The notes: generated from the letters alone by a model not told the origin. Positions 8,857 through 32,000 are shown, counted from the first letter of the stretch. The stretch: 32,000 nt of DNA from Azovibrio restrictus DSM 23866 (GCF_000429665.1 NZ_AUCH01000009.1:157031-189030); one strand, 5' to 3'. Made by a program: numbers and translations.

Positions 8857-8878
8857 GTCTTGCGGCGAGCGGTGACCC

Positions 8879-18906: not shown

Positions 18907-19197
18907 AAATTCAAGCGGTCTGCCAGATCTCTGGCGGGCCGCTTCTGCTTTGTGCTGCCAGTATGCGCGGCGGACTTCATCCCGCTCCCGCTCGGCGTTG
19001 GCCTGGGCAATCACTTCCAGCTCGTCAATCTCCAGCAGTTCCGCCACCCGAGCTGCCATGTAGTCGTCCATTACCCGTTTCTTGGTCCTGTACTGGCTGA
19101 TCTGAGCCGTTGAACAGTCCAGCACGTTTGCCAGCTGGGCATCTGTTGCCAACTGGCAACGGGTCTTGATTTCATCCAGGAAAAGCAAGGTGTTCAT
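18841..19197 (-). CDS. HTH (Cro/CI/XRE-like) putative prophage repressor; the C-terminal ~45 codons run antisense through the tRNA terminator and the tRNA 3' half
   Basis: 118-aa ORF. The N-terminal ~70 aa look like a phage HTH regulator (QLATDAQLANVLDCSTAQISQYRTKKRVM). The AGAGG RBS lies ~8 nt before the ATG at 19197. The first in-frame stop is inside the tRNA gene at 18841. Confidence 0.65.
   Translation of the reverse strand: MNTLLFLDEIKTRCQLATDAQLANVLDCSTAQISQYRTKKRVMDDYMAARVAELLEIDELEVIAQANAERERDEVRRAYWQHKAEAARQRSGRPLEFWRARDDSNVRPLPSEGSTLSN
18914..18953 (+). terminator. intrinsic terminator of the tRNA-Arg gene
   Basis: 13-bp stem AGCGGTCTGCCAG / CTGGCGGGCCGCT with loop ATCT. The two G-U pairs exist only in the + strand transcript. 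It is followed by TCTGCTTTGT. Confidence 0.6.
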
Positions 19198-19219
19198 TTG
19201 TGCGCCTCTGTCTCCATGA

Positions 19220-19234
19220 GGTCATTTAATGACC
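19220..19234. promoter_or_regulatory. perfect palindrome GGTCAT-TTA-ATGACC upstream of the repressor gene (candidate operator)
   Basis: 6-bp arms with a 3-nt spacer, 23-37 nt upstream of the repressor ATG. Confidence 0.35.
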
Positions 19235-19258
19235 AGACGGGCCTATTCTCCCCACCTT

Positions 19259-19319
19259 GCTAACACTTGACAACTCACAGCCGTTAGTTATACCGTTCGC
19301 AAAACTAACGTGCGTTAGC
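19259..19319 (+). promoter_or_regulatory. candidate rightward promoter (TTGACA-N16-TATACC, 19267-19294) embedded in four CTAAC/GTTAG half-sites
   Basis: Half-sites: GCTAAC 19259-19264; CGTTAGTT 19282-19289 and AACTAACG 19303-19310 (perfect 8-bp inverted repeat, 13-nt spacer); GTTAGC 19314-19319. A consensus -35 hexamer is present and the -10 hexamer overlaps one half-site. Confidence 0.35.
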
Positions 19320-19354
19320 CACTGCGGACAAACATGGCGCCCTCCCTCACCTCT

Positions 19355-20461
19355 TCAAGCCCTTCCCAGCCGAGCATTCCGCTCTTGCTCGTGTCGCTTG
19401 CGGGCAACCATGGCGCGGGCGACGTCGTGTCGAATGGTCTTGATGTAGGGCATGTCGCTTGTCTCGTAGACGATCAAGGGAATCCCCGCTTCTTCCAAAG
19501 CCGCCCGCTTAACCTCATCGGCCCGCTTTCGTTCCTCCAGTTCGTGGACGGCCCCGTTGAGTTCGATAGCGGCAACGATGGCGAAGTTATCCCCTTCCTT
19601 CCTGCAGACCAGGAAATCAACGCTCTTTCGCCCTATCTCGTTCAGCTGTGCATTCGCATCCCATCCCCTGATGTGGAGCATTTGGGAAACGCTCACCTGA
19701 GAGAAGACAACCAGCTGGGGCAAGGCGGCAACAAGTTCGTGATAGAGGGTGGCCTCTGTGTCGTTGAACAACAGGAATTTGTCCCTGTATTTCCCGCGTC
19801 GGCTCTTTTTGGCTGCGGGAGCAGCTGCCGGGGCTGTCCCCTGCATGAAGAATTTCAACTCTTCTTCCGGAACGGGAATCGGGGCCTGGCTATTCGAGCC
19901 GCTCTTCTGCTCTACCGGATCAGGCGTTTTCCTGGGTTCCACCCTCTGCTGATAAGTGGGGGCTCTTCCCCATTCCGTCCTCTTCGGCTTGAAAAACCAG
20001 CCAGCTGCGCCCGCCGACAAAGAAAACAGAAGCAGAGGCGGAACAATGTCCCCGTACCCGGGATATTTGAGGGTGATTCCCCGCTGCTCCAGAACTTCCT
20101 TCACCTCGCCGCTCTTCCACATGAGCTCGAAAATTTCCCGCTGTCGAGTCATGTTCCGCCGGCAGGTTCCTTTCAGTTCACGGTCTGTAATCGTTCCCTG
20201 GCAGGCCGGAGGCGCCTTGTAGATCGCTGCCCAAGCCCGCTCCTTCAAGGGTCGGAACGCTCCTGTTTTGGCAAAGCTGTTGTAGGTGACCAGGAGCAGA
20301 ACAACCAGCAACCCCACTCCAAGCTTCAAAAACCTGCCCAGGGCTTTTCCGCTTGCCCCCTCCTCCTTCAACCAGAACCACACGGCAAGGCCAATTACAG
20401 CCATGACGACCCCCAGCATAAACAGGAGGTCGGACGGATTCGTCGGATTTTCCATGGGCAA
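19355..20461 (-). CDS. membrane-anchored DUF2726-domain protein (PD-(D/E)xK nuclease-like fold)
   Basis: 368 aa with hydrophobic segments near the N-terminus (LLFMLGVVMAVIGLAVWFWL, LKLGVGLLVVLLLVTY, VPPLLLFSLSAGAAGWFF). The C-terminal block matches my recollection of DUF2726 (TEATLYHELV...VFSQVSV...RKSVDFLVC...AAIELNG..H...R.ADEV...LEEAGIPLIVY). It is oriented opposite to the phage structural genes and has visibly lower G+C. Confidence 0.7.
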   Translation of the reverse strand: MPMENPTNPSDLLFMLGVVMAVIGLAVWFWLKEEGASGKALGRFLKLGVGLLVVLLLVTYNSFAKTGAFRPLKERAWAAIYKAPPACQGTITDRELKGTCRRNMTRQREIFELMWKSGEVKEVLEQRGITLKYPGYGDIVPPLLLFSLSAGAAGWFFKPKRTEWGRAPTYQQRVEPRKTPDPVEQKSGSNSQAPIPVPEEELKFFMQGTAPAAAPAAKKSRRGKYRDKFLLFNDTEATLYHELVAALPQLVVFSQVSVSQMLHIRGWDANAQLNEIGRKSVDFLVCRKEGDNFAIVAAIELNGAVHELEERKRADEVKRAALEEAGIPLIVYETSDMPYIKTIRHDVARAMVARKRHEQERNARLGRA

Positions 20462-20562
20462 GCTTCCTTGAAGTCTTTGGGCTTAGTTGAGAGTCACTAT
20501 CAATGACGATTCTAACCCAACAGCATTCCACGTTCGCCGCCTTGCAGCCCTGGAGCCAGTAA

Positions 20563-20922
20563 ATGCCGACCCCAAACTTCTCCCTGCTCCTGGGCGTCAT
20601 CGACTTTTCCAAGGTCGTTATTGCCCTGTTGTCCATTTTCGCGGCCCTGGTAGCGGTTGCCTTTATCCAGAACGGCGCCGGAAAGCTGGTGGCCTTCGTC
20701 AGCTCAGAATATGAACGCAAGCACCCGGAGCGGGATTTCCAGCGACGCTTCGCACGTGAAGAACGCGCCCGCGTTGCAAAGCGGGAGCGCAGTAAAAAAG
20801 ACCAGGACTACAAGAACTGGAAAGCGGCCCAGATGGGCCCCAGGATGCCCCGGGGGCGTAAGCCGACCAACACCGGCTTTGGCACCATGCCCAAAGGCCG
20901 CTGGAGAGGGCTGGACTGGTGA
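20563..20922 (+). CDS. small membrane protein with highly basic C-terminal tail (hypothetical, phage)
   Basis: 119 aa: one TM (VVIALLSIFAALVAVAFI) followed by an Arg/Lys-rich tail. It is the first gene in a chain of start/stop-overlapped + strand genes that leads into the replication gene. Confidence 0.5.
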   Translation: MPTPNFSLLLGVIDFSKVVIALLSIFAALVAVAFIQNGAGKLVAFVSSEYERKHPERDFQRRFAREERARVAKRERSKKDQDYKNWKAAQMGPRMPRGRKPTNTGFGTMPKGRWRGLDW

Positions 20923-21206
20923 CCTACGCCCACATCCCCCTATCTCGCCTCCGATCTGCCGTCGCCTTCTGTGCGGCGGTTTCCCGTCTGGCCTGGCAAT
21001 TCCCTGGTGATGCCCTGCGCCCCTTCAACTGGCGCCGCCTCCAGTCCGGCCAGACCCAGGCCGACTTCCGCCGCTATGCCTTCGCCCTGCGCGAAGCACG
21101 GCCGGCGCCAGCTGGCGCCCTGACGCCGCCAACGGACCGCGGCACCGCCCGCAGCGCAGCGAGGACGGAGCCCCGGACCGGCTGGCGCTCGGAGGGGCGC
21201 CCATGA
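20919..21206 (+). CDS. hypothetical small phage protein (paralogue of 21397..21666)
   Basis: The GTG start overlaps the upstream stop (GTGA), and its own stop overlaps the next ATG (ATGA). It shares a PFN(x)WRLQ..Q...AFA.RE block with the ORF at 21397. Confidence 0.45.
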   Translation: MTYAHIPLSRLRSAVAFCAAVSRLAWQFPGDALRPFNWRRLQSGQTQADFRRYAFALREARPAPAGALTPPTDRGTARSAARTEPRTGWRSEGRP

Positions 21207-21400
21207 CGCGCTGCTGTGCCCGCTGCTGCGCCTTCTGCACCTCGGCCCGAGCCATCCCGGCCAAGGACCCCTTGCCCCACGAGCTCCCCATGCTGGTGGG
21301 CTGCGTCATGAAGGGCCACAAGGTGCCCCCGGCGTCCTCCTGCCCCTGGCACTCCGTCGGCCCCCTGATCCACCCCTGCTTTACAGAGGTCCTCGGATGA
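21203..21400 (+). CDS. hypothetical Cys-rich small phage protein
   Basis: 65 aa with N-terminus MTRCCARCCAFC plus three further Cys. ATGA overlaps occur at both ends. Confidence 0.4.
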   Translation: MTRCCARCCAFCTSARAIPAKDPLPHELPMLVGCVMKGHKVPPASSCPWHSVGPLIHPCFTEVLG

Positions 21401-21666
21401 TCGTCGCCCAGATTCCCTATCACCACGTCCAGGCCGCATGCCGCAACAGCCGCGTCCTGGCCCATCGCCACCAGCTCCAGCCCTTCAACACCTGGCGCCT
21501 CCAGGCCCAAGGCACCTCCATTGCCTGGCTCTTCGAGCGGGCCCGTTTCGCCTTTGCCCGGGAGCCTTTCAAAGGCTTTTTGGGCAGGGCCTCCGGCACT
21601 GGTTTTTTTGATCAGCGGCGCAGTAGCACCGCTGATAAGTCTCGTTTAAGAGACTCTGCCCTTTAA
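21397..21666 (+). CDS. hypothetical small phage protein (paralogue of 20919..21206)
   Basis: The ATGA overlap with the upstream gene supports coupling, and the ORF ends 5 nt before the replication gene. The DNA block CCCTTCAAC..TGGCGCC..CTCCAG is shared with 21018-21050. Confidence 0.45.
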   Translation: MIVAQIPYHHVQAACRNSRVLAHRHQLQPFNTWRLQAQGTSIAWLFERARFAFAREPFKGFLGRASGTGFFDQRRSSTADKSRLRDSAL

Positions 21667-21671
21667 TCGCC

Positions 21672-22925
21672 ATGGCCATCGACACCGTGAAACTCCGTTC
21701 CCCCGCCATCGATGAAGGCACGGCCTCATTCCTGGAGCGCCAGTGCATCCTGCGCCAGGGGGTGCAGATCCTGACCGGCGAAATCCTCTACGAAATCACC
21801 ACCGGCACCCTGGAGGGCTCCTACGATGCCCGGATCATGTTCAAGGTCTGCCGGGAGGACTGGATCACCATAGGGGGCAAACCCCAGCAAGTCCCCTGTA
21901 AGCCCTATGTCCTGGTGGAATGCTCCCTGCACAAGTTCTTCCACGGGCAGAACGTCTACGGCAACCCCTGCAACTTCCCCCAGCTCTGCCGGCGCTTCAT
22001 CGACGCCCTCGGCGAGATCATGGGCTCGGATCACGGCATGTTCCACGAGGCCGATAAATGGGAAGTCCGGCGGGTGGACTGGGCAGAAATGTTCCACCTC
22101 TCCCCAGCCGCCCAGCGGGAATTCTTCTGGTCCATGCGGGACGTGCACTTTCCCAGGCGGGCCAAGAAAGAAGCCCGCTATGACTCGGCCATTCACTTCC
22201 CCGGCAAGTTCACCACCGTCCGCATCTACTCCAAGGGACCGGAATTCAAGCTGCACGGTGAACCCGTCCTGCGCCGGGGCCTGGTCAAGTACCAACAGCT
22301 CCAGGACGGCCAGAACCCGGGGAAGGGGATAGACGGCCCCGTGCCTAAAAAAGTGGTGGCCGGCATGCCCCGCTATGCCTGGATAGAAACGAAGCTCCAG
22401 GCCCTCCAGCGCCTGGCCAACTGGCGCCTGCGCGCTGAAGTGCAAATCAATGCAGACAAGCTGCATCACGACTTCGGGGGACGTTACCCCCTCGTATCCG
22501 AAATCACCGACGCCTATCTGATCCAGATCTTCGAAGCCCAGATCTTCAAGCTCCTCAAAGAAGGAAAGACCGCCATGGAAACCGTCCGAACCTTTCACCA
22601 GGTCAAAGCCCGCCTTGATGCGGTCTACGGCGGGCGCTCCGCCAACAATCTCTTCTCGTTCTGGGTCCAGCTCGCCGAACTCGGCGAAGAACCCACCAAG
22701 CTCAATTTCTCCAAATCCCAGTTCTACAAGAACAGGGCCAAGCTCGTGGATGCCGGCGTCTCCTGGCACGCCACCGACGTCTTCATCCTGCCCCAGGACA
22801 CCGCCCTGCCCAGGGACTTCCGTCCCCTCTCCGCCGACAGCCGGCGCTGTATCGGCCAAGTCTCGGCCAACTCGATCTTCAACTTCTGCCCGGTTCAACA
22901 ACACGGCCTGATGAAGGCCGCTTAA
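21672..22925 (+). CDS. rolling-circle replication initiation protein (filamentous-phage gene II/CRI-type)
   Basis: 417 aa, sitting immediately upstream of the ssDNA-binding and coat genes. The N-terminal region (IDTVKLRSP ... VECSLHKFFHGQNVYG) resembles the conserved 'SLPK..xGxN' block of phage/plasmid replication initiators. Confidence 0.75.
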   Translation: MAIDTVKLRSPAIDEGTASFLERQCILRQGVQILTGEILYEITTGTLEGSYDARIMFKVCREDWITIGGKPQQVPCKPYVLVECSLHKFFHGQNVYGNPCNFPQLCRRFIDALGEIMGSDHGMFHEADKWEVRRVDWAEMFHLSPAAQREFFWSMRDVHFPRRAKKEARYDSAIHFPGKFTTVRIYSKGPEFKLHGEPVLRRGLVKYQQLQDGQNPGKGIDGPVPKKVVAGMPRYAWIETKLQALQRLANWRLRAEVQINADKLHHDFGGRYPLVSEITDAYLIQIFEAQIFKLLKEGKTAMETVRTFHQVKARLDAVYGGRSANNLFSFWVQLAELGEEPTKLNFSKSQFYKNRAKLVDAGVSWHATDVFILPQDTALPRDFRPLSADSRRCIGQVSANSIFNFCPVQQHGLMKAA

Positions 22926-22944
22926 TCCCTGAAAGGAAGCCCCC

Positions 22945-23292
22945 ATGGAAGCCGTCGCCTCACACCCCACCCAGAAGAAACCCACCACCCCTGCCGTGCA
23001 AATGGGGCAGGTCTACCTGGAAGGCCGGATTGCCTTCCGCCGTCGCATGCGCGGCCAGGAAGGCCCGTATTTCCTCTCTGTCCTCAAGATTCCCGCACAA
23101 GATCAGTTCTCCCACCCGGGCACCGTGGAAGTGCTCAGCCATGACTCCCTGGGCCAGCCCGGGGACGACTGGAAAGGCATCTGTGAAGTCACCGGCTACC
23201 CCCGCTCCTACGACAGCAAGCCGGACAAGGAAACCGGCGAAGTCACGCGGATTCATACCGCCGAAGTCCGCCTTCGGGTCCTGGAGCAATAA
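22945..23292 (+). CDS. putative ssDNA-binding protein (pV-like)
   Basis: 115 aa with a good RBS (AAGGAAG, 5 nt before the ATG). The call rests on size and on position directly after the replication gene and before the coat genes. It is positional, not motif-based. Confidence 0.5.
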   Translation: MEAVASHPTQKKPTTPAVQMGQVYLEGRIAFRRRMRGQEGPYFLSVLKIPAQDQFSHPGTVEVLSHDSLGQPGDDWKGICEVTGYPRSYDSKPDKETGEVTRIHTAEVRLRVLEQ

Positions 23293-23294
23293 GC

Positions 23295-23537
23295 ATGGCC
23301 ACCTGTATTCAGTTCGACGCCAGCGGCTTTGCCGTCCTGGCTGCCGGAGAACCCAGCACGTGCACCGCCGTGCTGCTCTCCGGCACTGAATACGCCCAGA
23401 TTCAAGCGGCCCAGTCGGCAGACATCAGCTATCCCCAGGCCGGCGCCGTCTTCTCCTTCTTCTTCGGATTCACCTTGGCGGCCTGGTACGTCGCCAAGAA
23501 CGTTGGACTGCTCCTGGAAGCCGTCCGGCGGTTTTAG
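23295..23537 (+). CDS. small phage protein with C-terminal TM helix (hypothetical)
   Basis: 80 aa with a C-terminal hydrophobic helix (AVFSFFFGFTLAAWYVA) followed by basic residues. It lies between the pV-like gene and the major coat gene. Confidence 0.5.
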   Translation: MATCIQFDASGFAVLAAGEPSTCTAVLLSGTEYAQIQAAQSADISYPQAGAVFSFFFGFTLAAWYVAKNVGLLLEAVRRF

Positions 23538-23596
23538 CTTTCGGCATCGCTGAAAGGGTCCAGGCCCCTTGCCTGGTTTGTATGGAGGAATCACCC

Positions 23597-23869
23597 ATGA
23601 AACACGTAATGCTTCTTCTTCAATCCCTGGCGGCCCTGCCAGCCAAGATGGCCCGGTCCGCCCTGGCCCTCCTGACTGCGGGCCTTGCCCTGCTCGGGAT
23701 CGCCGGCCCGGCCCTGGCCGCTGACCCGGTGGACTTCAGCGGCCTGACCAACTCCGTGGACTTCTCCTCGGTCATCGTGGCCCTGATGGCAGTCGCTGCC
23801 GCCCTGATGCTGGTCTACATCGCCTGGAAGGGCGCCAAGATGATCTTGGCCGCTGTCCGGGGCGGTTAA
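23597..23869 (+). CDS. inovirus major coat protein precursor (pVIII-like)
   Basis: GGAGGA lies 7 nt before the ATG at 23597. A long signal peptide ends in ...GPALA. The predicted 49-aa mature peptide is ADPVDFSGLTNSVDFSSVIVALMAVAAALMLVYIAWKGAKMILAAVRGG, with an acidic N-terminus, a hydrophobic core and a basic C-terminus. Confidence 0.85.
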   Translation: MKHVMLLLQSLAALPAKMARSALALLTAGLALLGIAGPALAADPVDFSGLTNSVDFSSVIVALMAVAAALMLVYIAWKGAKMILAAVRGG

Positions 23870-23888
23870 TCGGTCGCGTCACGTTGCC

Positions 23889-23905
23889 CACTTTCGCATG
23901 CGAAA
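23889..23905. repeat. 17-bp motif CACTTTCGCATGCGAAA (contains the perfect 14-bp palindrome TTTCGCATGCGAAA), copy 1
   Basis: Identical 17-mer to 28829-28845. This copy lies 20 nt after the major coat stop codon. Confidence 0.9.
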
Positions 23906-23913
23906 CCCCGGCC

Positions 23914-23994
23914 ATGGTTACTGAGCTCTGGTATCTCCTCTTTGCCTTCTGGGGAATCGTCTGCGGGTGGGCTGTCATTGAAGGGCTGAAATAA
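23914..23994 (+). CDS. 26-aa hydrophobic peptide (candidate pVII/pIX-like minor coat protein); not in the ORF track
   Basis: ATG at 23914, TAA at 23992-23994, translation MVTELWYLLFAFWGIVCGWAVIEGLK. Size, hydrophobicity and position between the major coat and pIII-like genes fit inovirus tip proteins. No clear RBS was seen. Confidence 0.35.
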   Translation: MVTELWYLLFAFWGIVCGWAVIEGLK

Positions 23995-24094
23995 CCCGGA
24001 ATCTGGACAATTCCGGATCAACCCTCCAGATCCTTGCGGAAGGATAGGCCGGTGTTCCTGCGGGTGGAAACCGGCCCCTATAAGGGGTTACCAG

Positions 24095-25594
24095 GTGAGC
24101 TTCCACACCCTCCTACTCGCGCTCTTGCTGCTCCTCTCAGGCGCCAGCCATGCAGCGACTTACATCCTCAACGGCACCGGCAGCCGGGTCTGCTGCGGTA
24201 CGAACTGCACGACAGCGGTCGCCCGTACCCTGCTGGGCTACCAGGCGGGGGACTGCACGGAAAGCAGTTCCGGCACGACTCGCTATTACTCGACCAATGC
24301 CAATTCCACTTCCAAATGCTCGGGCACCTATCTTGGCTTGCATGGCCAATCCACCGCCCCTTGCGGCACCTGCACCACCCTTGAACTCAAAGACGGCACC
24401 TGCGTTGCCGACCAGGCCGGCGCCGCTGCCGTGGGTAGCACCCCCTCGGCCCCCGGAGACATTCCCGGTACGGACGATAACGGCGAAGAAACGCCCCCGG
24501 TCTGCTCCCCAGGCGCTGGCCTGGGCAAACTGATCTGTAAAAACGGCTGGGTCTTCCAGTGTCAATCGGCGTCTTCCGTCGGCGCCACAGAACACAGTGC
24601 CGGGGAAACCTGCGCCTACGGCCCCTGCACCCGCACCACCAATCAATGCAACCCCTACACCCCCACAGGAGGCTGCCGCGAGAATGAACAGGCCATCGGC
24701 GCCGGCTGCCTCTGCGCCCCGGGTGCAACCCGGGTCAATGGCGTCTGCAAATACTCGGACCCCCCAAACGACGATAGCGGCAACACGGGAGGCACCGGCG
24801 GAACCGGCGGCAACGGCAATACGGGCGGCGATACCGGCGGCGATACCGGCGGCGACACCGGGGGAGATACGGGCGGCACGGGTGGCGACACCGGGGGCGG
24901 AGATAGCGGCGGCGGCAACTCGGGGGGCAGCAACTCGGGGGGCAGTAACTCCGGCGGCAGCAACAGCGGGGGCGGAAACTCCGGCGGCAACGGGGACGGG
25001 GAAGGCGAAGGGGAAGGAGACAGCGAAACCCCCACCCCGGAATGCCAGGAGGGCGAGGAGTGCAACGGCAATGGCATCTGTGAAGCCGGAGAAACCTGCA
25101 ACGGCCTCCCGGGAGATACCAACGGCGACGGGGTCTGCCAGACCAATGAACCCTGCGGGGGCGGTAGCGGCAACCCCGTGGAATGCGAAGCCGGCCAGGA
25201 ATGCAACGGTAACGGCATCTGCGAAACCGGGGAGGACTGCACGGTCCCTTCCGAAGATGACTCCGGCAATGGCAACGGCACCGGAAATGGGAACGGCAAC
25301 GGGACCGGCACCGGCTCGGACTGGTGGAACAAGACCACCGGCCAGGGAGACCCCACGGTCCCCGATGGGGATGGCTTCGCCTCGGCCTTCTTCCCCGGCA
25401 CCTTTGACAGCCTCCTGAACTGGGACCTGCCGGCCCATAGCTCTGTCTGCCCCGTGGGCCAGTTCGACGCCTTCGGCCAGAGCTTCCAGGTGGATTCCCA
25501 CTGCACCCTGGTGCAAAGCCACTTTCCCACCCTCCGGGCTGCCTTCATCGTCTTCTGGCTGCTGGTGGCCGTGATGCTCGTCATGAAAGCCTGA
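24095..25594 (+). CDS. adsorption/minor coat protein (pIII-like) with Gly-rich linkers and C-terminal membrane anchor
   Basis: 499 aa with signal peptide MSFHTLLLALLLLLSGASHA and a Cys-rich N-domain. A ~78-aa G/T/D/S/N linker follows (GGTGGTGGNGNTGGDTGGDTGG...GGSNSGGSNSGG...GEGEGEG). It also has duplicated ECxxGxECNGNGICExGExC modules, a second GNGNGTGNGNGNGTGTG linker and a C-terminal TM (AAFIVFWLLVAVMLVM). Confidence 0.8.
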   Translation: MSFHTLLLALLLLLSGASHAATYILNGTGSRVCCGTNCTTAVARTLLGYQAGDCTESSSGTTRYYSTNANSTSKCSGTYLGLHGQSTAPCGTCTTLELKDGTCVADQAGAAAVGSTPSAPGDIPGTDDNGEETPPVCSPGAGLGKLICKNGWVFQCQSASSVGATEHSAGETCAYGPCTRTTNQCNPYTPTGGCRENEQAIGAGCLCAPGATRVNGVCKYSDPPNDDSGNTGGTGGTGGNGNTGGDTGGDTGGDTGGDTGGTGGDTGGGDSGGGNSGGSNSGGSNSGGSNSGGGNSGGNGDGEGEGEGDSETPTPECQEGEECNGNGICEAGETCNGLPGDTNGDGVCQTNEPCGGGSGNPVECEAGQECNGNGICETGEDCTVPSEDDSGNGNGTGNGNGNGTGTGSDWWNKTTGQGDPTVPDGDGFASAFFPGTFDSLLNWDLPAHSSVCPVGQFDAFGQSFQVDSHCTLVQSHFPTLRAAFIVFWLLVAVMLVMKA

Positions 25595-25596
25595 CC

Positions 25597-25890
25597 ATGA
25601 TTCCTGTCCTTACCATCTTCTCCCCCCTCCTGACCTACTTCCTCCGGGCCGTGGTGGTGAAGTTCCTTGTGTTCACCGCCGTCATCGCCCTGGTCACCTT
25701 CCTGGTCCCCTTCGCCGTGAAGTGGGTGGCCGGCTTCATTTCTCCCCAGGCCTTGAATGGTGCCTTCAGCGGCATTCCGGATGGGGTCTGGTACTTCGCG
25801 GACTTCTTCGCCCTGGACTACGGCTTGCCCCTGGTGTTCTCGGCCCTGGTGTCCCGCTTCCTGATCCGGCGCCTGCCGGTCATTGGCTAA
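25597..25890 (+). CDS. pVI-like minor coat/membrane protein
   Basis: 97 aa and strongly hydrophobic, with multiple TM segments. It directly follows the pIII-like gene, as in inoviruses. Confidence 0.6.
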   Translation: MIPVLTIFSPLLTYFLRAVVVKFLVFTAVIALVTFLVPFAVKWVAGFISPQALNGAFSGIPDGVWYFADFFALDYGLPLVFSALVSRFLIRRLPVIG

Positions 25891-25900
25891 GGAGTCCCCC

Positions 25901-26116
25901 ATGACGAATCCCGTCCTCGATCTGGACAAGCACAACCGGACCTTCATCGACCACGCCCGGGATGCTGCCCGATGGTTTGGCGAAGGCTTCGTGGTGTTTG
26001 TTTCTAACGTCGCGGTGCTCGGCACCCATGACAAGGGCAGCGCCCAGGCTGAGGCCCGGGCCTGGTCGGAGAAGAACGGCCGGGAGAATGTCCGGATTCG
26101 TAGGATCAAAGTCTAA
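25901..26116 (+). CDS. hypothetical small phage protein
   Basis: AAGGAG lies 6 nt before the ATG at 25901. 71 aa. Its stop overlaps the next ATG (TAATG). The C-terminus ...VRIRRIKV is repeated at the end of the next ORF. Confidence 0.5.
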   Translation: MTNPVLDLDKHNRTFIDHARDAARWFGEGFVVFVSNVAVLGTHDKGSAQAEARAWSEKNGRENVRIRRIKV

Positions 26117-26307
26117 TGTCCATCAAGCTTTATACGGGCCGGATGGGGAGCGGAACAACCTATGAAGTTGTTTCCGTCTTGATTCTGGGAACTGGTTTCC
26201 GAGCCGAAAGCGCTTACAAGGATCTTTGGTTGGCCAAACAGGTAGCCCGGGAGCATGTGGGCAGCACCCCTCGGGTTTTCGTCAAAATTCGTAGGATCAA
26301 AGTCTAA
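26116..26307 (+). pseudogene. 'ghost' unit created by a 191-bp tandem duplication: zot 5' end with a mutated Walker A fused to divergent sequence ending in IRRIKV
   Basis: The translation MSIKLYTGRMGSGTTYEVVSVLILG matches the zot N-terminus MSIKLYTGRMGSGKTYEVVSVVILG at 23 of 25 residues, with the P-loop Lys changed to Thr. The 25-nt perfect repeat ATTCGTAGGATCAAAGTCTAATGTC occurs at 26096-26120 and 26287-26311. Confidence 0.75.
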
Positions 26308-27383
26308 TGTCGATCAAGCTCTATACGGGCCGCATGGGGAGCGGCAAGACCTACGAGGTGGTTTCCGTGGTGATCCTGGGCGCCCTGGCCCGGGGCCGGC
26401 GGGTGGTGTCCAATATCGCCGGGCTGAACTATGAAGCCATGCAGGCCGTCCTGGTGGAGTCCGGCGTTCCTGCGGACCAGGTGGGCCAGCTGGTGCAGGT
26501 CACCCATGCCCAGGTAGAAGAACCCCAATTCTGGCGCACAGATAAGGATGAAGCCGAAGGGGTGGATTCATTCATCCAGCCCGGGGACCTGGTCTGCCTG
26601 GATGAAATATGGCGCTTCTGGGAGGGCTTCGCCGGCCGCAAGATGCCCGAGCGGGTGATGAACTTCTACCGCATGCACCGGCACTTTGCCCACCCGGAAA
26701 CCGGGGTGACTTGTGATGTGGCCCTGATCACCCAGGACCCCGGGGACCTGTCCCGCCGGGTCCGGGCGGTGGTGGAGGAAACCTACCGCATGGAGAAGCT
26801 AACCGCGGTTGGCATGTCCAGGCGGTACCGGGTGGATATCTTCTCCGGCTGCAGCAGCCGGCCCCAGTTCCTGCGCTCCTTGCAGCGCACCTATGAGAAG
26901 AAATACTTCCCCCTCTACAAGAGCCATTCCCAGGCCAAGGACGATAGCGCCGGCCCCCGGGAAGAGAACATCGACCAGCGGGGCAACATCCTGCGCGGGG
27001 CGCTCTTCAAGGTGGTCCTGCCCGTCATGGCCCTGGTGGGCATGGCCTCGGTCTATTTCGTCTGGTCCTTCCTGCATCCGGAGCCGCCCCCCAAGGCCAA
27101 GACCGCCCAGGCCGGGGCGGGCAAGCCTGCCGGCGCCACTACCCCGGCCCCGGCCGGCGCCGCGCCATTACCTGGGATGAACAGCCGTTTCCGGGTGGTG
27201 GGCTATGTGGCCCAGGGGAGCAATCCCCGGGTCTACCTGGCCTACGACGAAACCGACCGGGCCCGCATCTTCTACAAGCGCCAGGTGGTGGAGTCCCATA
27301 ACTGGAAGATGACTCTTAAGGCGCCGGATGGGCAGATCACGGAATGGAGCGGCAGCAAGGGGAAGGGAGAGAAGACCCCATGA
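26307..27383 (+). CDS. Zot/pI-like inovirus assembly ATPase
   Basis: 358 aa. Features: N-terminal Walker A GRMGSGKTYE, Walker B-like LVCLDEIW, an internal TM (VVLPVMALVGMASVYFVWSFL) and a Pro/Ala-rich linker. This matches Zot-family architecture and sits in the canonical position before the secretin. Confidence 0.85.
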   Translation: MSIKLYTGRMGSGKTYEVVSVVILGALARGRRVVSNIAGLNYEAMQAVLVESGVPADQVGQLVQVTHAQVEEPQFWRTDKDEAEGVDSFIQPGDLVCLDEIWRFWEGFAGRKMPERVMNFYRMHRHFAHPETGVTCDVALITQDPGDLSRRVRAVVEETYRMEKLTAVGMSRRYRVDIFSGCSSRPQFLRSLQRTYEKKYFPLYKSHSQAKDDSAGPREENIDQRGNILRGALFKVVLPVMALVGMASVYFVWSFLHPEPPPKAKTAQAGAGKPAGATTPAPAGAAPLPGMNSRFRVVGYVAQGSNPRVYLAYDETDRARIFYKRQVVESHNWKMTLKAPDGQITEWSGSKGKGEKTP

Positions 27384-28633
27384 AGATCCGCGCCTTCTGC
27401 CTGGTGCTCTGCTTCCTCGCTGGCCAGGCCCTGGCCCAGGAGGGCCGGGACATCAGCATGCAGTTCTCGGAGATCCGCTTACCTGACCTGGTGCGCCTGC
27501 TCTTTACCGATATCCTCGGAAAGAACTACGTGCTGGACAAGGAGGTCCTGGAGTCTCCGGAAATCCTGACCATCAATATCAAGTACATGAGCCCGGCCCA
27601 GCTGGAAACCCACCTGCTGGAGATCATCCAGCGCCGGGGCTTCAAGGTGGATTGCCGGCAAGGGTTCTGCCATGTGGCCAAGCGTCCCGAGGCGGCCCAG
27701 GAAGCCCCCCGGGCTTTCTATGTCTATCGCCCCCGGCATCGTTCGGTGCCCTATCTCCTGGCCCTGGTGGGGCCTCTGTATCCGCCCCAGTCCTTCACCA
27801 CCCAACGCCAGATTGACAACCCCGGCCCGGAAACCCAGAAGTCCGGCAGCACCGGCCACGAAACCGGGACCAATGCCACTTCCTTAATCGACAAGGGCAA
27901 CCTGGATACCCTGGTCTATCAAGGCAGCCCCCAGGAGATCACCCGACTGGAAAGCCTGCTGCAGCAGCTCGACCAGGCGGCGGCGGAAGTGATCGTGAAA
28001 GCCTCTGTCTTTGAAGTCCGCCAGACCCGCCAGGAGAGTTCCGCCGTGTCCCTGGCCCTGGGACTGCTCAAGTCCGCCTCGGGCCTGGGCATCACCATCA
28101 CCCAGGACACCAGCAACGGGAACGCGGTCAAGATCAAGGCCGGGGACGTGTCCGCCGTCTGGTCGGCCCTGAGCTCGGACAGCCGCTTCCGGCTCTTCAG
28201 TGCCCCCACCATCCGGATCAGGAGCGGCAACACGGCCAAGTTCATGGCCGGCTCGGAAGTGCCGGTGCTGGCCAGCACCACCACCACGACCACCGGCACG
28301 GTGCAAAGCGTGGAATACAAAAGCTCCGGGGTCATCCTGGAACTTACCCCCCAGGTCCGCCCCGGGGGGACGGAACTCCAGATCGCCCAGGAAGTGAGCA
28401 GCTTTACCGCCACCACCAACGGGGTGAACAACTCCCCGACCCTCTTGAAGCGAGAGCTGACCACCCAGATTACCGCCCACGATGAAGAAATCATTCTCCT
28501 GGGCGGCCTGGAAGAAACCACCCGCACCGACGGACAGTCCGGCCTCTCCTTCCTCCCCGCCTGGATGAAAGGCAGCTCAGAGGGGGAGGACCGGACCGAA
28601 ATCATGATGATTCTTAACGTTCAGAGGATTTGA
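27380..28633 (+). CDS. pIV-like secretin (phage export channel)
   Basis: The ATG at 27380 overlaps the zot stop (ATGA). Signal peptide MKIRAFCLVLCFLAGQALA. The C-terminal secretin domain shows these blocks: VIVKASVFEV, FRLFSAPTIRIRSGNTAKFMAGSEVPV, YKSSGVILELTPQV and TQITAHDEEIILLGGL. Confidence 0.85.
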   Translation: MKIRAFCLVLCFLAGQALAQEGRDISMQFSEIRLPDLVRLLFTDILGKNYVLDKEVLESPEILTINIKYMSPAQLETHLLEIIQRRGFKVDCRQGFCHVAKRPEAAQEAPRAFYVYRPRHRSVPYLLALVGPLYPPQSFTTQRQIDNPGPETQKSGSTGHETGTNATSLIDKGNLDTLVYQGSPQEITRLESLLQQLDQAAAEVIVKASVFEVRQTRQESSAVSLALGLLKSASGLGITITQDTSNGNAVKIKAGDVSAVWSALSSDSRFRLFSAPTIRIRSGNTAKFMAGSEVPVLASTTTTTTGTVQSVEYKSSGVILELTPQVRPGGTELQIAQEVSSFTATTNGVNNSPTLLKRELTTQITAHDEEIILLGGLEETTRTDGQSGLSFLPAWMKGSSEGEDRTEIMMILNVQRI

Positions 28634-28635
28634 AT

Positions 28636-29091
28636 ATGGATACCTGCACGCTCCCCCCTGACTTCGTTCCCCAGGCCCTGGCGTTCCTGGAGACCTTCAC
28701 CTGGTCAATATTTGGGTTGGGGGTTATTACCGCCGTTTTTGCGTTCCTGGTCTTCCATTCCCTGGATGCCTTCTTGTCCGCGTTCATCCGGCCCCGACTG
28801 ATCCAAGCCCTGCGCCGTCGCCGTCGTGCACTTTCGCATGCGAAAACGGCGAAGCAGGGAACCCGGTTTAGGAACCGGCAACCGTTCCCGACAAACCACC
28901 AGCAGGCACCAGCCCCGCCTTTCCCCTGGCATGCTGACACCGACCATATGGTAATGGTATGGTGCCGCATATGGTCGCCGTCTACGCTCTCGCATATCTT
29001 CAAGCATTTGCCGAAGCCCTGCATTGGCTTATCTTCCGGCGTGATAGGTTGTCCAGGATATACGGCGCCCAGCCAGCTTATACGGCGATAA
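28636..29091 (+). CDS. hypothetical; only the N-terminal ~70 codons (TM plus basic stretch) look protein-like, and the remainder overlaps a hairpin-rich probable non-coding region
   Basis: ATG at 28636, TM segment WSIFGLGVITAVFAFLVF, then RRRRR. The ORF then runs through palindromes at 28829-28845, 28855-28888 and 28941-28977. Confidence 0.3.
   Translation: MDTCTLPPDFVPQALAFLETFTWSIFGLGVITAVFAFLVFHSLDAFLSAFIRPRLIQALRRRRRALSHAKTAKQGTRFRNRQPFPTNHQQAPAPPFPWHADTDHMVMVWCRIWSPSTLSHIFKHLPKPCIGLSSGVIGCPGYTAPSQLIRR
28829..28845. repeat. 17-bp motif CACTTTCGCATGCGAAA, copy 2
   Basis: Identical to 23889-23905. It lies ~195 nt after the secretin stop. Confidence 0.9.
28941..28977. repeat. 10-bp perfect inverted repeat CGACCATATG-N17-CATATGGTCG (candidate phage packaging signal or origin hairpin)
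   Basis: The arms are at 28941-28950 and 28968-28977. The loop contains GGTAATGGTATGGTG. It sits in the post-secretin region where inoviruses carry their intergenic hairpins. Confidence 0.4.
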
Positions 29092-29113
29092 CGCCGTCTA
29101 CTTCACGTTAGGG
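29059..29113 (+). other. left boundary recombination site of the cassette array: attI-like or attC lacking R''
   Basis: The direct repeat TATACGGCG occurs at 29059-29067 and 29079-29087. A hairpin TATACGGCG-ATAA-CGCCGTCTA follows, then the spacer CTTCAC and the core GTTAGGG at 29107-29113. No RYYYAAC inverse core lies upstream. Confidence 0.45.
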
Positions 29114-29142
29114 GTCTCAATTCATCACAAGGAGAATTGTCC

Positions 29143-29874
29143 ATGAAGGAAGACAAAGCGCAGTTTCCCGTTCGCATGTTCATTCGGCCGGCAGAGAGTT
29201 TCGGCGACCCCGAATGGTCACCTTTAAGCGAATCAGCGTCCCCTTCGTTTCATTACGAAATGGACTACGCGAATGTTCTTATCGCACTATTGACCTCGTT
29301 TGCCACAGTTGCACGCAAGGAACTTCACACAACACACAAATTGCGCTCCGTTCTCTGTGAACAATGGAAGGCTCAAGAGGCAGGTACCCCGTTTGATCTT
29401 AGAGTTCTGACAGAAGACAACAATGTTGCCCTGATCGTTTCCAAGCTGTGGCACGAACAGAATCGGCAGCAAGAGGTAGGGTTCATCTTTGGCTCCGAGG
29501 AACCCGCTGATGTTTTGGTGCGCCATGTCGGTGGGGCTTGGAACATCGTTGAAGTCAAGCCCCGTCCGAACATCCTTGTGTCGTCTCAGTCAATGCCTGC
29601 TGGATATCTCAGAGATACTGCCAAGACGATCTCTCATCGCTTTGCTGCTTTGACTGAAACACAGGATTATGTCCGCCACTTGTTCCAGGAAATTGAACGC
29701 GAGATTATTGTCCCGGAATCATCTCTTCGAGATATGAGCAGTTGGTTAAGAGCTAGTGCCCGTCGCGTTTCCCGTGAAGCAGATGCCTTTGACGAGCGTG
29801 CGAGAACACACCAGACGGAATTCCAACGCCGCATCCTTGCACTGGGTCGCAGTAGGGAAGGAGCGCCATCGTGA
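29143..29874 (+). CDS. hypothetical protein (cassette 1, gene A)
   Basis: AAGGAGA lies 7 nt before the ATG at 29143. 243 aa. I recognise no motif. The stop overlaps the GTG of the next ORF (GTGA). Confidence 0.55.
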   Translation: MKEDKAQFPVRMFIRPAESFGDPEWSPLSESASPSFHYEMDYANVLIALLTSFATVARKELHTTHKLRSVLCEQWKAQEAGTPFDLRVLTEDNNVALIVSKLWHEQNRQQEVGFIFGSEEPADVLVRHVGGAWNIVEVKPRPNILVSSQSMPAGYLRDTAKTISHRFAALTETQDYVRHLFQEIEREIIVPESSLRDMSSWLRASARRVSREADAFDERARTHQTEFQRRILALGRSREGAPS

Positions 29875-30170
29875 CCAACCCAAAAGAGGCAGTGGGATGG
29901 CTAAATTTTGCGCTCAACCTGCGAGAGTCAATAACCTCCATTGAACAGTCGCTGTCTAAGTCCAAATCCGATGTTGACGGCATCCGAACGGAAATCATGC
30001 TTCTCGTTGAACGCCTTGAACATTTTGACGACCTGCTGTTGAGACTTGAGAGGCGAATAGACAGAATCGAGGATCGCACGCCGAATGTCGCGGTTGTTGC
30101 CGTCTCCCCATATCCAAGCACGAAAGAAGTCCCGAGGCTCACGAGCGATGACAAGTCGGTCGACCCCTAA
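29871..30170 (+). CDS. hypothetical coiled-coil protein (cassette 1, gene B)
   Basis: 99 aa with heptad-like content (LRESITSIEQSLSKSKSDVDGIRTEIMLLVERLEHFDDLLLRLERRIDRIEDR). The TAA stop (30168-30170) is part of the attC inverse core CCTAAC. Confidence 0.5.
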   Translation: MTNPKEAVGWLNFALNLRESITSIEQSLSKSKSDVDGIRTEIMLLVERLEHFDDLLLRLERRIDRIEDRTPNVAVVAVSPYPSTKEVPRLTSDDKSVDP

Positions 30171-30231
30171 CCCTGCGTTCGAGGCGACCTGCGCGAAAAG
30201 CCGCGCAGGCGCCTCAACTCCACGTTAGAAG
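30165..30231 (+). other. integron attC site A
   Basis: Boxes: R'' CCTAAC (30166-30171), spacer CCTGC, L'' GTT[C]GAGGCG with one extrahelical C. The central perfect 8-bp stem is CCTGCGCG-AAAAGC-CGCGCAGG. Then L' CGCCTCAAC, spacer TCCAC and R' GTTAGAA (30224-30230). Confidence 0.8.
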
Positions 30232-30233
30232 GC

Positions 30234-30509
30234 ATGCGATCCATCGTCATTGATTGCGGCTCAGTTCAGTCGGAAGCTGATTTTTGGTCCGCATACGTTC
30301 GCACCGCCGAGCCAGAAGGTGCCGGCCACTTTGGCCGGAACCTTGATGCATTTTGGGACGGGCTAAACGGCGGTCCAGGTTGGCCCGGCGAGTGCCGGCT
30401 CCTGTTCATTAATACTTCGCCGCTCCACGCGTTTCGCGGCGGGAAATTTCTTGAGGTGTTGCGTGATATCGCCAGCCGATCTAAGGCCGTGGAGGTCAAA
30501 TTTGAGTAA
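30234..30509 (+). CDS. barstar-family ribonuclease inhibitor / immunity protein (cassette 2)
   Basis: 91 aa. The segment FWSAY....GAGHFGRNLDAFWDGLNG is collinear with the barstar helix-2 region (YYGENLDALWDCLTG). The size fits the family. The ATG lies 4 nt after the attC core. Confidence 0.65.
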   Translation: MRSIVIDCGSVQSEADFWSAYVRTAEPEGAGHFGRNLDAFWDGLNGGPGWPGECRLLFINTSPLHAFRGGKFLEVLRDIASRSKAVEVKFE

Positions 30510-30511
30510 GC

Positions 30512-30570
30512 CTTCTAACCTTTCGCTGCAGCGGACGGCTTCGCCGCCCGCTGAGCTTGCACGTTAGGTC
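30512..30570 (+). other. integron attC site B
   Basis: Boxes: R'' TCTAAC (30514-30519), spacer CTTTC, L'' GCT[G]CAGCGG with one extrahelical G, short central loop, L' CCGCTGAGC, spacer TTGCAC and R' GTTAGGT (30563-30569). Confidence 0.8.
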
Positions 30571-30575
30571 TCAAT

Positions 30576-31241
30576 ATGGCACCTCCTCCCCGCGTCACCA
30601 AAGCTGTTGTTCAAACCGAAGTGACAAGCTTCGTGGCAAACATAAATCGCGCTCGCGATCTCTATAGAAAGATAGCTCTTCACGGCTACACGGGCACTTC
30701 TGCTGCAACGTCAACCCGACTATCCAACCCGGATACGCGTGATGCCGCGCAATTCATCTTCTTTGAAATTGCTGCAAAGTTTGAAGACCACGCCAAATTC
30801 ATGTTCCAGGTCGAAGTTCGGTCGCGACTTCAAGTTACTGCTACGCGAAGCGCCTTCGTAATGGGCGACCTTGATAATGGCTTGAACAACAAGCTTGGCT
30901 GGGGCAGCCCACAGCGGCTGAAAGAACGTGGACACAATCTGTTCGGTGCTAACTCGTTCTTCGGTGACCTCGTCAACAAACTTGGAAACCAAACCTACAA
31001 GACATTGGTTTCTGCTCACACGGTACGAAACCGTGTCGCTCATGACGGTGGGGCTGCGCAAACCAAGTTCGTGAAGCTTCTTGATGGAGATGGAATCCAA
31101 GCTGCTGAACGACAAGGTATGAGTATCGGCAGGTACCTTCGCGATTACCCAACGGCTGCAACTGCCGCAAATCGCAACTTCTTTTTGTACTTGGCGGCAT
31201 ATGAAGACTTTGCAACCAAGGCAGGTGCAGCATTGCCATGA
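30576..31241 (+). CDS. HEPN-like protein with Rx4H motif (cassette 3), putative RNase/abortive-infection-type effector
   Basis: 221 aa and predicted to be all-alpha by composition. The motif SAHTVRNRVAHDG (R-N-R-V-A-H = Rx4H) sits in the C-terminal third, as in HEPN families (Abi_2 / RiboL-PSP-like 'RNxxAH'). Confidence 0.45.
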   Translation: MAPPPRVTKAVVQTEVTSFVANINRARDLYRKIALHGYTGTSAATSTRLSNPDTRDAAQFIFFEIAAKFEDHAKFMFQVEVRSRLQVTATRSAFVMGDLDNGLNNKLGWGSPQRLKERGHNLFGANSFFGDLVNKLGNQTYKTLVSAHTVRNRVAHDGGAAQTKFVKLLDGDGIQAAERQGMSIGRYLRDYPTAATAANRNFFLYLAAYEDFATKAGAALP

Positions 31242-31248
31242 GCCTGAG

Positions 31249-31321
31249 ACCTAACATCACAATCCACCGGACCGTCAAAAAGCTGCGCATTTTGCCGTCC
31301 GGTGATTTTCAACGTTAGATT
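31249..31321 (+). other. integron attC site C
   Basis: Boxes: R'' CCTAAC (31250-31255), spacer ATCAC, L'' AATC[C]ACCGGAC with one extrahelical C, central CAAAAAGC-TGC-GCATTTTG stem, L' GTCCGGTGATT, spacer TTCAAC and R' GTTAGAT (31314-31320). Confidence 0.8.
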
Positions 31322-31343
31322 TTTAAACTAAAAGAGCAATTCA

Positions 31344-32000
31344 ATGGAAAAGTTATTAGAAGTGCTTAACCCTCTAATACAATTTGTATTGGTATGTGTA
31401 GGGCTTTGGTACACGGTAGAAACTAGAAAATTAAGGCAGCAGTCCGAAAGACAATCGAAAGCAGCTTTGGGTCAAAAGCGGTTGTCAATAGCTCCCTATT
31501 TAGTAAGCGGACTAGTAAATCCGCTATCTGAAGATGAGGATGCAAGTGAATCAGGCGATAGCGCTGAGAGAGCCGAGCTGAAAAAAGCTATTGAAGATGC
31601 AAGGAAAAATGATGAATTGCTATATTTTGTCGGTGTTAGCAATCCAACTGACAAAGTTGCTATTCAGGTGGATATATATCTCTACGATAAAAATAAGAAA
31701 AGCTACTTATTAGGTGATACCGGACATCAAGTCTTGAGCAGTAAGGACCATGAAATCATCTCGGTATCTAGGCCATATATGACAGAGAGCGAAGTCACAG
31801 CGGAGATAAAAGCTGATCATGGCCTTCATGCCGAGTTTGCTCGTGCGGTCTCACAAAGAAAAGAAACCCATTCTGAAATTTATGTTCTTTACAAAGACAT
31901 CGAAGGGTTCTCATATTTGGCGGCTCGTCAATTTAAAGAAGAAGATGACGGAGACATAGTGTATAGGCAGCAAAATTTCTTTTTTAGTGGGTTGGAGTGA
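31344..32000 (+). CDS. hypothetical membrane-anchored protein (cassette 4), very AT-rich
   Basis: 218 aa with an N-terminal TM (LIQFVLVCVGLWYTV), an acidic linker and a beta-rich C-domain. The TGA stop falls on the last three bases of the window. The composition is completely different from the host. Confidence 0.55.
   Translation: MEKLLEVLNPLIQFVLVCVGLWYTVETRKLRQQSERQSKAALGQKRLSIAPYLVSGLVNPLSEDEDASESGDSAERAELKKAIEDARKNDELLYFVGVSNPTDKVAIQVDIYLYDKNKKSYLLGDTGHQVLSSKDHEIISVSRPYMTESEVTAEIKADHGLHAEFARAVSQRKETHSEIYVLYKDIEGFSYLAARQFKEEDDGDIVYRQQNFFFSGLE

Follow-up and report, generated by a model that had tools for sequence, protein, structure and literature searches.

How does a filamentous prophage come to lie directly against an array of integron cassettes beside a tRNA gene, in a stretch of DNA that encodes no recombinase for either? 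The question is raised by 32,000 nucleotides (nt) of Azovibrio restrictus DSM 23866 (GCF_000429665.1, NZ_AUCH01000009.1:157031-189030), here called the window and numbered from its first nucleotide. In it, an inovirus-type prophage starts at a tRNA-Arg gene, phage-homologous DNA stops close to position 29,100, and a series of attC cassettes follows. A preliminary description of the window had suggested, among other possibilities, that folded phage single-stranded DNA (ssDNA) was captured at an attI or attC site. The comparisons presented here make another explanation probable: the locus would hold one inovirus element that integrates at tRNA-Arg by means of its own integrase, and the attC cassettes would be cargo of this element, loaded at a phage site by an integron integrase (IntI) acting in trans.

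An element between two copies of the tRNA-Arg 3′ half

The left 18.8 kb of the window are core chromosome of a betaproteobacterium with a high guanine-cytosine (GC) content and include genes for SpoT, TatD, a MauG-like di-haem enzyme and cytochrome c. This part ends with the tRNA gene, the 3′ part of which is the left attachment site of the prophage:

18830-18906, plus strand: tRNA-Arg(CCG), found by ARAGORN
18859-18906, 3′ part of the tRNA-Arg gene: attL, a copy of a 48-nt att repeat, 100% identical to positions 17276-17323 of the sister locus L090

Within the window the tRNA-Arg 3′ end has no second copy, and only attL is present. Searches of the window by tblastn with one phage integrase and one IntI1 sequence as queries found no tyrosine recombinase and nothing below E = 1. 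The best match to a dif-like site in the window has 8-9 mismatches in 28 positions and lies within the open reading frame (ORF) of a cassette; integration of this phage by dif/XerCD was rejected because there is no dif-like site in the window. On both points the preliminary description, which had reported neither a tyrosine recombinase nor a dif-like site, is confirmed.

The missing right side is found in the sister genome of the window strain (GCA_023397935.1), on a 187-kb contig referred to as L090. This sequence is 98.5% identical to the window over the flank and the left phage end, which carries the repressor and DUF2726 genes, and 96.8% identical over the remaining phage. The order of the locus is MauG-like protein, cytochrome c, tRNA-Arg, repressor, DUF2726, phage genes, secretin, small membrane protein and a conserved non-coding segment; then follow four attC cassettes, a ParB_N gene and genes for proteins of 126 and 106 amino acids (aa), these three on the minus strand, and on the plus strand a gene for a tyrosine recombinase of 287 aa. 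The 3′ half of tRNA-Arg, which extends from the anticodon arm to CCA, is repeated exactly, over 48 nt, 11 bases past the recombinase stop codon; this second copy forms attR. The next gene beyond attR encodes a DUF4214 protein which is annotated in A. restrictus RefSeq too. Two independent assemblies of the sister locus, L092 (ENA) and L093 (Logan), have the identical gene order. Since the 48-nt repeat occurs in only two copies in the 21-kb L090 locus (1255-1302 and 17276-17323), the ca. 16 kb between them form a single attL-attR unit.

The recombinase gene of L090 (16402-17265) matches PF00589 (1e-36), and its product shares 42-43% identity, across 97% of its length, with integrases annotated in temperate Pseudomonas phages. 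The integron integrase model TIGR02249, with a cut-off of 265 bits, gives it a score of 49.6 bits, and it stays far under the cut-offs for IntI, XerC and XerD. Aligned to IntI1, it lacks the IntI-specific insertion of ca. 30 aa. By these comparisons the enzyme is a conventional phage-type integrase and not an IntI.

Sequence of the window's own strain was available as two Logan contigs from run SRR1797197. L001 (6.2 kb) is 100% identical to window positions 25881-32000 and ends 39 nt past the window. Exact look-ups with the TatD and barstar proteins gave no record. L097 (2.9 kb) carries the ParB′, 126-aa and 106-aa genes, the integrase gene and the initial 30 nt of the att repeat, and is 97.7% identical to L090; its end 30 nt into the tRNA repeat is explained by the fact that a k-mer assembler must break at a repeat. 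In RefSeq, the longest contig listed for A. restrictus proteins at least 90% identical to the L090 integrase, the 126-aa protein and the 106-aa protein is 29,373 nt long, the identical DUF4214 protein is on a contig of 187,137 nt, and the window cassette proteins are on one of 189,134 nt. This separation of the cassettes from the integrase module fits an assembly break within the attC array.

We propose that from 18907 to past 32000 the sequence represents the left side and the centre of a single integrated inovirus-type element, which would enter the 3′ half of tRNA-Arg(CCG) through its own phage-type tyrosine integrase. The integrase, the ParB-like module and attR would lie just past the window, across an assembly gap due to the repeated attC sites. 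The term 'integrase-less' used in the preliminary description thus applies to the window but not to the element, the integrase of which is present in L090 and in L097 of the same strain; the appearance arose because the window edge falls short of the integrase. The suggestion of a larger tRNA-Arg island with an integrase past 32000 is supported, but did not foresee that the element is the phage itself and the array its cargo. Calls of 'integrase-less' near window or contig edges are unsafe, especially where attC or att-core repeats break assemblies.

Related prophages are found at two further chromosomal loci: L085 and L086 adjoin a GGDEF response-regulator gene, and L084 adjoins a TatD/ankyrin locus. 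L084 and L086 carry no array, and in these the phage is followed by the ParB module, either immediately or with a PLD gene in between, which indicates that the ParB/integrase side travels with the phage. Dif-like junction sequences were observed in more distant family members at other loci, in L084 at 8296-8325 (ATTGCGCATAA-TTTTTA-…) and in L089 as GTTTACATAATATAAA and GTTAACATAATATAAATTATAG at its two ends (1-40 and 9110-9150). The phage family may switch between XerCD/dif integration and the use of its own integrase at a tRNA site. An IntI1-like match in L004 was rejected as the integrase of an integron; it is XerD.

The alternative that survives best assumes two separate elements at tRNA-Arg, an older island with the array, ParB and the integrase, and an inovirus without integrase which landed in or beside this island. 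It can draw on the dif-like junctions of L084 and L089, which suggest that the wider family can use host XerCD, and on base composition. The GC content is 64-72% in the host flank, ca. 56-58% in the repressor and DUF2726 genes and 60-67% in the phage structural genes, and drops to 43-55% past 28.7 kb, in the cassette region, so that phage core and cassettes contrast; the same drop counts in favour of cassettes as cargo of the phage, too. However, the two att copies of L090 enclose no internal hybrid site, and the left phage end with the repressor gene abuts the att core of the tRNA exactly. The direct connection of the ParB module to related phages at two other loci without an array, and the array which L085, a prophage of another chromosomal locus, has at the same phage junction, also speak against a composite origin, which we consider unlikely.

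Integron cassettes at a constant phage junction

From 29107 on, the window contains four units, each of which starts with G|TTAGxx (the bar marks the crossover) and ends with an imperfect hairpin bounded by xxCTAAC and GTTAGxx:

29108-30224, plus strand: cassette 1, overlapping ORFs 29137-29874 and 29871-30170, then attC1
30225-30563, plus strand: cassette 2, barstar-family protein 30234-30509 (PF01337, 2e-10), then attC2
30564-31314, plus strand: cassette 3, 221-aa protein 30576-31241, then attC3
31315-32000, plus strand: cassette 4, 218-aa protein 31344-32000, attC past the window end

Three attC sites of 57-72 nt are complete (attC1 30165-30230, attC2 30513-30569, attC3 31249-31320), and attC4, which starts just beyond 32000 (AATCTAAC...), is visible in L001. 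The length of the complete sites agrees with the spacing of 50-140 nt expected for the inverted R″ (..YAAC) and R′ (GTT....) boxes of attC. The bottom strands of attC1-3 fold as attC hairpins (z = -4.4, -2.9 and -4.6), in which CTAAC pairs with GTTAG and internal bulges remain. In cassettes 1-3, the first 7 nt (G|TTxxxx) and the R″ box of the attC belonging to the same cassette are exact reverse complements (7/7 in each), and the start of cassette 4, read by eye against its R″ box (ATCTAAC, from ca. 32002), also agrees at 7/7. Three of the four L090 cassettes follow the rule at 7/7; the box of the fourth has a one-base insertion. Judged from the sequence, this complementarity is the signature of circular cassettes that were inserted singly at G|TT. 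The heptamer GTTAGGG at 29107-29113 complements the R″ box of attC1 (CCCTAAC) exactly, and because the box belongs to the cassette's own attC, the heptamer represents the recombination junction of cassette 1 and not a lone core site. The bases on its left (…CTTCACG) are part of the recipient site. The core site at 29107, without a gene between it and the phage sequence, had been noticed in the preliminary description, and the folds together with the R″ complementarity confirm that the attC cassettes are genuine.

The motif GTTAG occurs 7 times in the 32 kb and not before 19283, and the pattern [CA]ACGTT[AC]G occurs 5 times. A hairpin-based attC scanner of our own was unspecific in DNA of 65-70% GC and served for cluster spotting only. 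The Rfam scan of the window gave 0 matches, Rfam itself having no attC family. With at least four attC sites in a row, and with no intI within 10 kb leftward (tblastn) nor in the 21-kb sister locus, the array is by its sequence features an attC cluster devoid of an integron integrase (CALIN), lying inside a prophage. The term calls for two or more consecutive sites and no intI within ca. 4 kb.

As to the cargo, PADLOC gave no defence match for any window cassette protein, and the cassette 1 proteins have no Pfam match either. The cassette 3 protein belongs to a cluster at 90% identity with 22 members from metagenomes and a few genomes. The barstar-family inhibitor of cassette 2 is not accompanied by a barnase gene in the array and may be the product of an orphan immunity gene.

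To the left of cassette 1, a phage segment without coding function is shared with relatives, and the cargo starts at its end:

28933-29100, plus strand: conserved non-coding phage segment of ca. 170 nt, 90% identical in L085 and L090, partial in L086 and L094
28934-28963, plus strand: promoter-like element CTGACA-N18-TATGGT from a promoter scan, pointing into the cargo
29100-29113, plus strand: cargo junction of the window, CTTCACG|TTAGGG, the left half phage and the right half the start of cassette 1
L090: junction CTTCAGG|TTGGGC
L094: junction CTTCCACG|TAGGGG
L085, other chromosomal locus: junction CACTTTATG|TCATAC

The arrays of the window, L090, L094 and L085, four related prophages of Azovibrio from two chromosomal loci, have no cassette in common, and all begin at the same phage junction. 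The attC sites of the L085 cassettes belong by eye to the same sequence family and are partly degenerate. Both hexamers of the promoter-like element are unchanged in all five phages, and L090 lacks 21 nt of the conserved segment. No gene separates the phage sequence from GTTAGGG (29107-29113). As ssDNA, the region 28800-29125 folds better than shuffled sequence (z = -3.1), which bears out the hairpin-rich region described earlier at 28.8-29.1 kb. The prophage end that had been placed at ca. 29.1 kb is correct in that phage-homologous DNA stops there, but the integrated element runs on.

The relative L094 has two diverged copies of the promoter-bearing segment (11870-12000 and 13195-13260). The first is followed by non-cassette cargo and the second by a three-cassette array; in the second copy, the sequence between two CGCCGTCT direct repeats is deleted.

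A cargo slot lies between the promoter-bearing segment, which comes after the secretin gene, and the ParB/integrase module, and in this lineage it holds genuine integron cassettes. The cassettes were inserted by G|TT crossovers at a single phage-borne site, CTTCACG|TT, which in the proposed mechanism would act like an attI or attG site; CTTCACGTT would be the phage site where IntI-dependent recombination takes place. This fixed left junction and the promoter-like element (28934-28963) sit in phage DNA and not beside an intI gene. Since the element has no intI, the loading and exchange of cassettes would be the work of an integron integrase acting in trans, with its gene elsewhere in a host. 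Loading by host IntI at the attI/attG-like site of the phage is the most likely route by analogy, the reaction between attC and the phage site being comparable to attC x attI or attC x attG recombination. Both the insertion of cassettes by IntI at sites other than att, the 'attG' sites with a GWT crossover, and arrays without intI have been documented (Loot et al., 10.1101/2022.09.11.507474). The promoter-like element CTGACA-N18-TATGGT would serve as the cassette promoter (Pc).

The phage would excise by its own integrase together with the array, and its virions may bring the cassettes from cell to cell. In Ff phages it is the coding-sense strand that is packaged, and the attC strand recombined by IntI is the bottom one. 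The cassettes are co-oriented with the phage genes, so that with packaging of the Ff type the virion ssDNA would carry the attC top strands, which are non-recombinogenic; this should shield the array from excision in the ssDNA form. Taking these steps together, we tentatively put forward the possibility that the phage lineage is a mobile integron platform without intI, with an outward promoter, a reusable docking site CTTCACG|TT at which host IntI swaps cassettes, and transfer in virions.

Several observations weigh against cassettes as cargo of a single element that is loaded in trans. The array and the integrase are contiguous in the sister genome only, the window strain having an assembly gap between them, and no IntI was located in any Azovibrio genome examined. 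The L094 and L085 junctions are imperfect as GTT sites, and some attC sites of these two prophages are degenerate. Differences between the arrays are explicable by homologous recombination in the flanking phage DNA instead of by IntI. The prophage may be defective, as its post-secretin gene has lost the stop codon and the zot 5′ end is duplicated. Finally, among 13 more distant inovirus contigs from IMG/VR, with pII proteins 41-65% identical to that of the window, neither arrays nor the conserved segment were found, and the lack of arrays counts here as well.

The phage end itself permits a different view of the junction. It consists of the hairpin ACGGCG-ATAA-CGCCGT followed by CTACTTCAC-GTT and resembles the 3′ half of an attC, so the docking site may descend from a truncated attC. 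The same hairpin and GTT can also be taken to mean a single acquisition, in which illegitimate recombination with a break inside an attC brought in a piece of a chromosomal integron. On this view the junction would be no docking site but a dead half-attC, and later attC x attC exchange or homologous recombination would be the only source of differences between the arrays; the 21 nt missing from L090 and the L094 deletion between the CGCCGTCT repeats agree with such a history. The first cassette, however, differs in every prophage and its start always fits the complementarity rule at the same junction, for which recombination at this very site is needed, and L085, at the other locus, also has cargo from this point on. 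We regard a single acquisition with a dead junction as quite improbable.

Direct capture fares worse. It holds that IntI joined folded phage ssDNA to an attI or attC site or, in a variant, that the phage insertion displaced or deleted intI from a chromosomal integron. The phage end CGCCGTCTACTTCACGTT is indeed similar to the L′-R′ arm of attC1, CGCCTCAACTCCACGTT, and the crossover is exactly at G|TT, but the attC-like arm is intrinsic to the phage, since L085 has it too, and the sequence 29040-29120 has no R″/L″ partner and no attC fold (z = -1.5). Neither an attI-left half nor an intI remnant is present at the tRNA, where the phage begins on the left, or elsewhere in the window, and the array lies inside the attL-attR unit of a tRNA-integrated element with its own integrase. 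The preliminary description itself had set against capture the case of a phage integrase and a matching attR beyond the array. Both are present in L090, and L097 shows the integrase and the start of attR for the window strain. More distant relatives carry no integron at the tRNA-Arg locus, where L003 has a UvrD-like helicase gene and L008 has ppk and tRNA-Val. Capture in either form is thus highly improbable, and a decayed chromosomal integron is disfavoured by these relatives without integron and by the position of the array inside attL-attR.

Gene set of the prophage

Between attL and the conserved segment, the following genes and sites were identified:

18841-19197, minus strand: helix-turn-helix repressor-like phage gene, 118-aa ORF (phrog_4441, phrog_638)
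19260-19320: CTAAC/GTTAG palindromes between the repressor and DUF2726 genes
19355-20461, minus strand: DUF2726 membrane protein (Pfam PF10881, 6e-22)
20563-21666, plus strand: four small phage ORFs ahead of pII (119, 95, 65 and 89 aa), called in the JGI, NCBI and ENA assemblies
21672-22925, plus strand: rolling-circle replication initiator pII, gene II/X family (PF05144, 3e-10)
22945-23292, plus strand: ssDNA-binding protein, pV-like (phrog_8473, 2e-18)
23295-23869, plus strand: small virion proteins, an 80-aa ORF and a major coat-like 95-aa protein (23582-23869)
24095-25594, plus strand: pIII-like minor coat/adsorption protein with Gly/Asp/Ser-rich repeats, from gene order and C-terminal phrog matches
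25597-25890, plus strand: pVI-like protein, DUF2523 (PF10734, 1e-8)
26307-27383, plus strand: Zot/pI assembly ATPase (PF05707, 1e-29)
27344-28633, plus strand: pIV-type secretin (PF00263, 3e-24)
28630-29091, plus strand: small membrane protein, 153-aa ORF, stop lost with read-through into the conserved non-coding segment

An inovirus prophage beginning at tRNA-Arg, as first described, is supported by Pfam matches for DUF2726, pII, DUF2523/pVI, Zot/pI and the secretin and by PHROGs matches for the repressor, the ssDNA-binding protein and a virion protein. By these matches, the presence of Zot and pII and the one-strand order ssDNA-binding protein, coat, pIII and pVI (22945-25890) identify an inovirus. 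The small virion proteins match phrog_969 and phrog_2186, 'virion structural protein', and 200 homologues of pII carry the name II/X family. Judged by pII, the nearest GenBank record is filamentous phage WC36-1 with 45% aa identity, and there is no close deposited phage. Secretin-based scans of genome, metagenome and viral collections gave no relative, and a degenerate 17-nt pattern of the conserved non-coding segment gave chance matches only in viral and metagenome contigs, none of them homologous by BLAST. The 119-, 95- and 89-aa ORFs ahead of pII had no family match when scanned. In L084, the left-end 125-aa ORF contains, at 8806-8885, a stretch of 70 nt which is 87% identical to the interior of pII, window positions 22094-22163 (…SPAAQREFF..RDVHFPRRA…), and which reads as a recombination scar between phage modules.

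At the left end, the frame of the repressor ORF crosses attL and enters tRNA-Arg; the C-terminal half of its product is by eye similar to genes at the repressor position in prophages L084 and L085. The DUF2726 gene is at the same position in L085, L089, L090 and L094 and is on this distribution a conserved accessory gene of the phage lineage. It is flanked by the only other GTTAG/CTAAC motifs of the window (19260-19320 and 20512-20536), which comprise CTAAC-N18-GTTAG, the palindrome CTAACGTGCGTTAG and CTAAC-N15-CACGTTCG (20512-20536). The last of these has the CACGTT motif in common with attC 3′ ends. Read on the minus strand, the motifs loosely resemble cassette boundaries; the complementarity rule failed (5/7). 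They could be repressor operators or the vestige of an old cassette insertion, and the palindromes at 19260-19320 are probably operators. The segments 20512-20536 and 29090-29113 were also considered as attL and attR, which would place the repressor and DUF2726 genes outside the phage; this pair was rejected since both genes are conserved in related prophages elsewhere and since the true att repeats are the tRNA halves.

The structural genes include several repeats. The pIII-like gene contains the repeat families D1 and D2 and, at 24780-25310, long nucleotide repeats of the GGxGG/GNS type, where the JGI contig Ga0248167_1001218 breaks. Two short ORFs precede zot (25883-26116 and 26116-26307). 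Repeat D3 is a tandem duplication of the zot 5′ end together with the sequence immediately before it (26096-26189 and 26287-26380, 87% identity), which yields the 63-aa ORF 26116-26307 with the Zot-like start MSIKLYTGRMGSG. L090 has the same arrangement, and L085 and L094 have a 172-aa ORF there instead. The Logan contig L001 begins at 25881, just ahead of this duplicated region.

The small protein encoded after the secretin gene has 77-79 aa in relatives, and in L085, L086 and L090 the homologous proteins stop after ...SHAKTA... Its cluster at 90% identity consists of members of 77-78 aa and a single member of 151 aa from the window strain; the lost stop codon may indicate that this copy of the prophage is decaying. 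A 14-nt palindrome, TTTCGCATGCGAAA, stands after the major coat gene (23893-23906) and after the post-secretin gene (28832-28845). It recurs at module boundaries in every related prophage (L084, 16726-16739 and 16761-16774; L085, ca. 17304 and ca. 17754; L086, ca. 16642 and ca. 17557) and may be a terminator or a regulator-binding site.

Relation to known systems

Integron cassettes are thought to move between cells mainly on plasmids and transposons with complete mobile integrons. If the proposed mechanism is true, a temperate filamentous phage with a docking site adds a viral route for integron cassettes. It would also provide a natural attI/attG-like site that evolved or persists without a linked integrase, which bears on the origins of CALIN and attI.

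The Pf1 and Pf4 inoviruses of Pseudomonas aeruginosa have a repressor at one end and a tyrosine integrase at the other, integrate at tRNA 3′ ends and carry moron genes. The Azovibrio phage is similar to Pf1/Pf4 in the opposite positions of repressor and integrase, in tRNA 3′ integration, in the possession of accessory genes and in the order ssDNA-binding protein, coat, pIII, pVI and Zot. Unlike these phages, it has its own secretin, a ParB-like module and attC cassettes, its rolling-circle initiator precedes the structural genes, and its target is tRNA-Arg(CCG). CTXphi and VGJphi are likewise integrated filamentous phages, and the distant relatives L084 and L089 show dif-like junctions, whereas the window has no dif-like site and the Azovibrio lineage integrates at a tRNA att site with an integrase of its own.

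On the integron side, the array corresponds to the sedentary chromosomal integrons of soil and freshwater Proteobacteria in its R″/R′ boxes, in attC sites of 57-72 nt with the crossover at G|TT, in cassettes that mostly contain a single ORF, and in a cargo of low GC content and unknown function. In contrast to these integrons, the Azovibrio element lacks intI, no recognisable attI with direct repeats for IntI binding stands beside an integrase gene, and the platform is a mobile phage and not the chromosome. Clusters or single attC sites without an integron integrase are reportedly what Cury et al. in 2016 termed CALIN and SALIN. The Azovibrio array resembles CALIN and attG insertions in having at least four consecutive attC sites with no intI nearby and a leftmost boundary that is not an attC and is cut at G|TT. 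It differs from them by its location inside a filamentous prophage, downstream of a conserved phage segment with a promoter-like element, and by the fact that the same site holds different arrays in sister phages, like a reusable attI and not like a one-off insertion. In the searchable literature we found no paper that describes attC arrays in inoviruses. The parts are all known, namely an integrating inovirus, a CALIN and an attG-type insertion; what the literature searched did not contain is their combination, an attC array at a fixed, promoter-proximal slot in a filamentous prophage which varies between sister phages.

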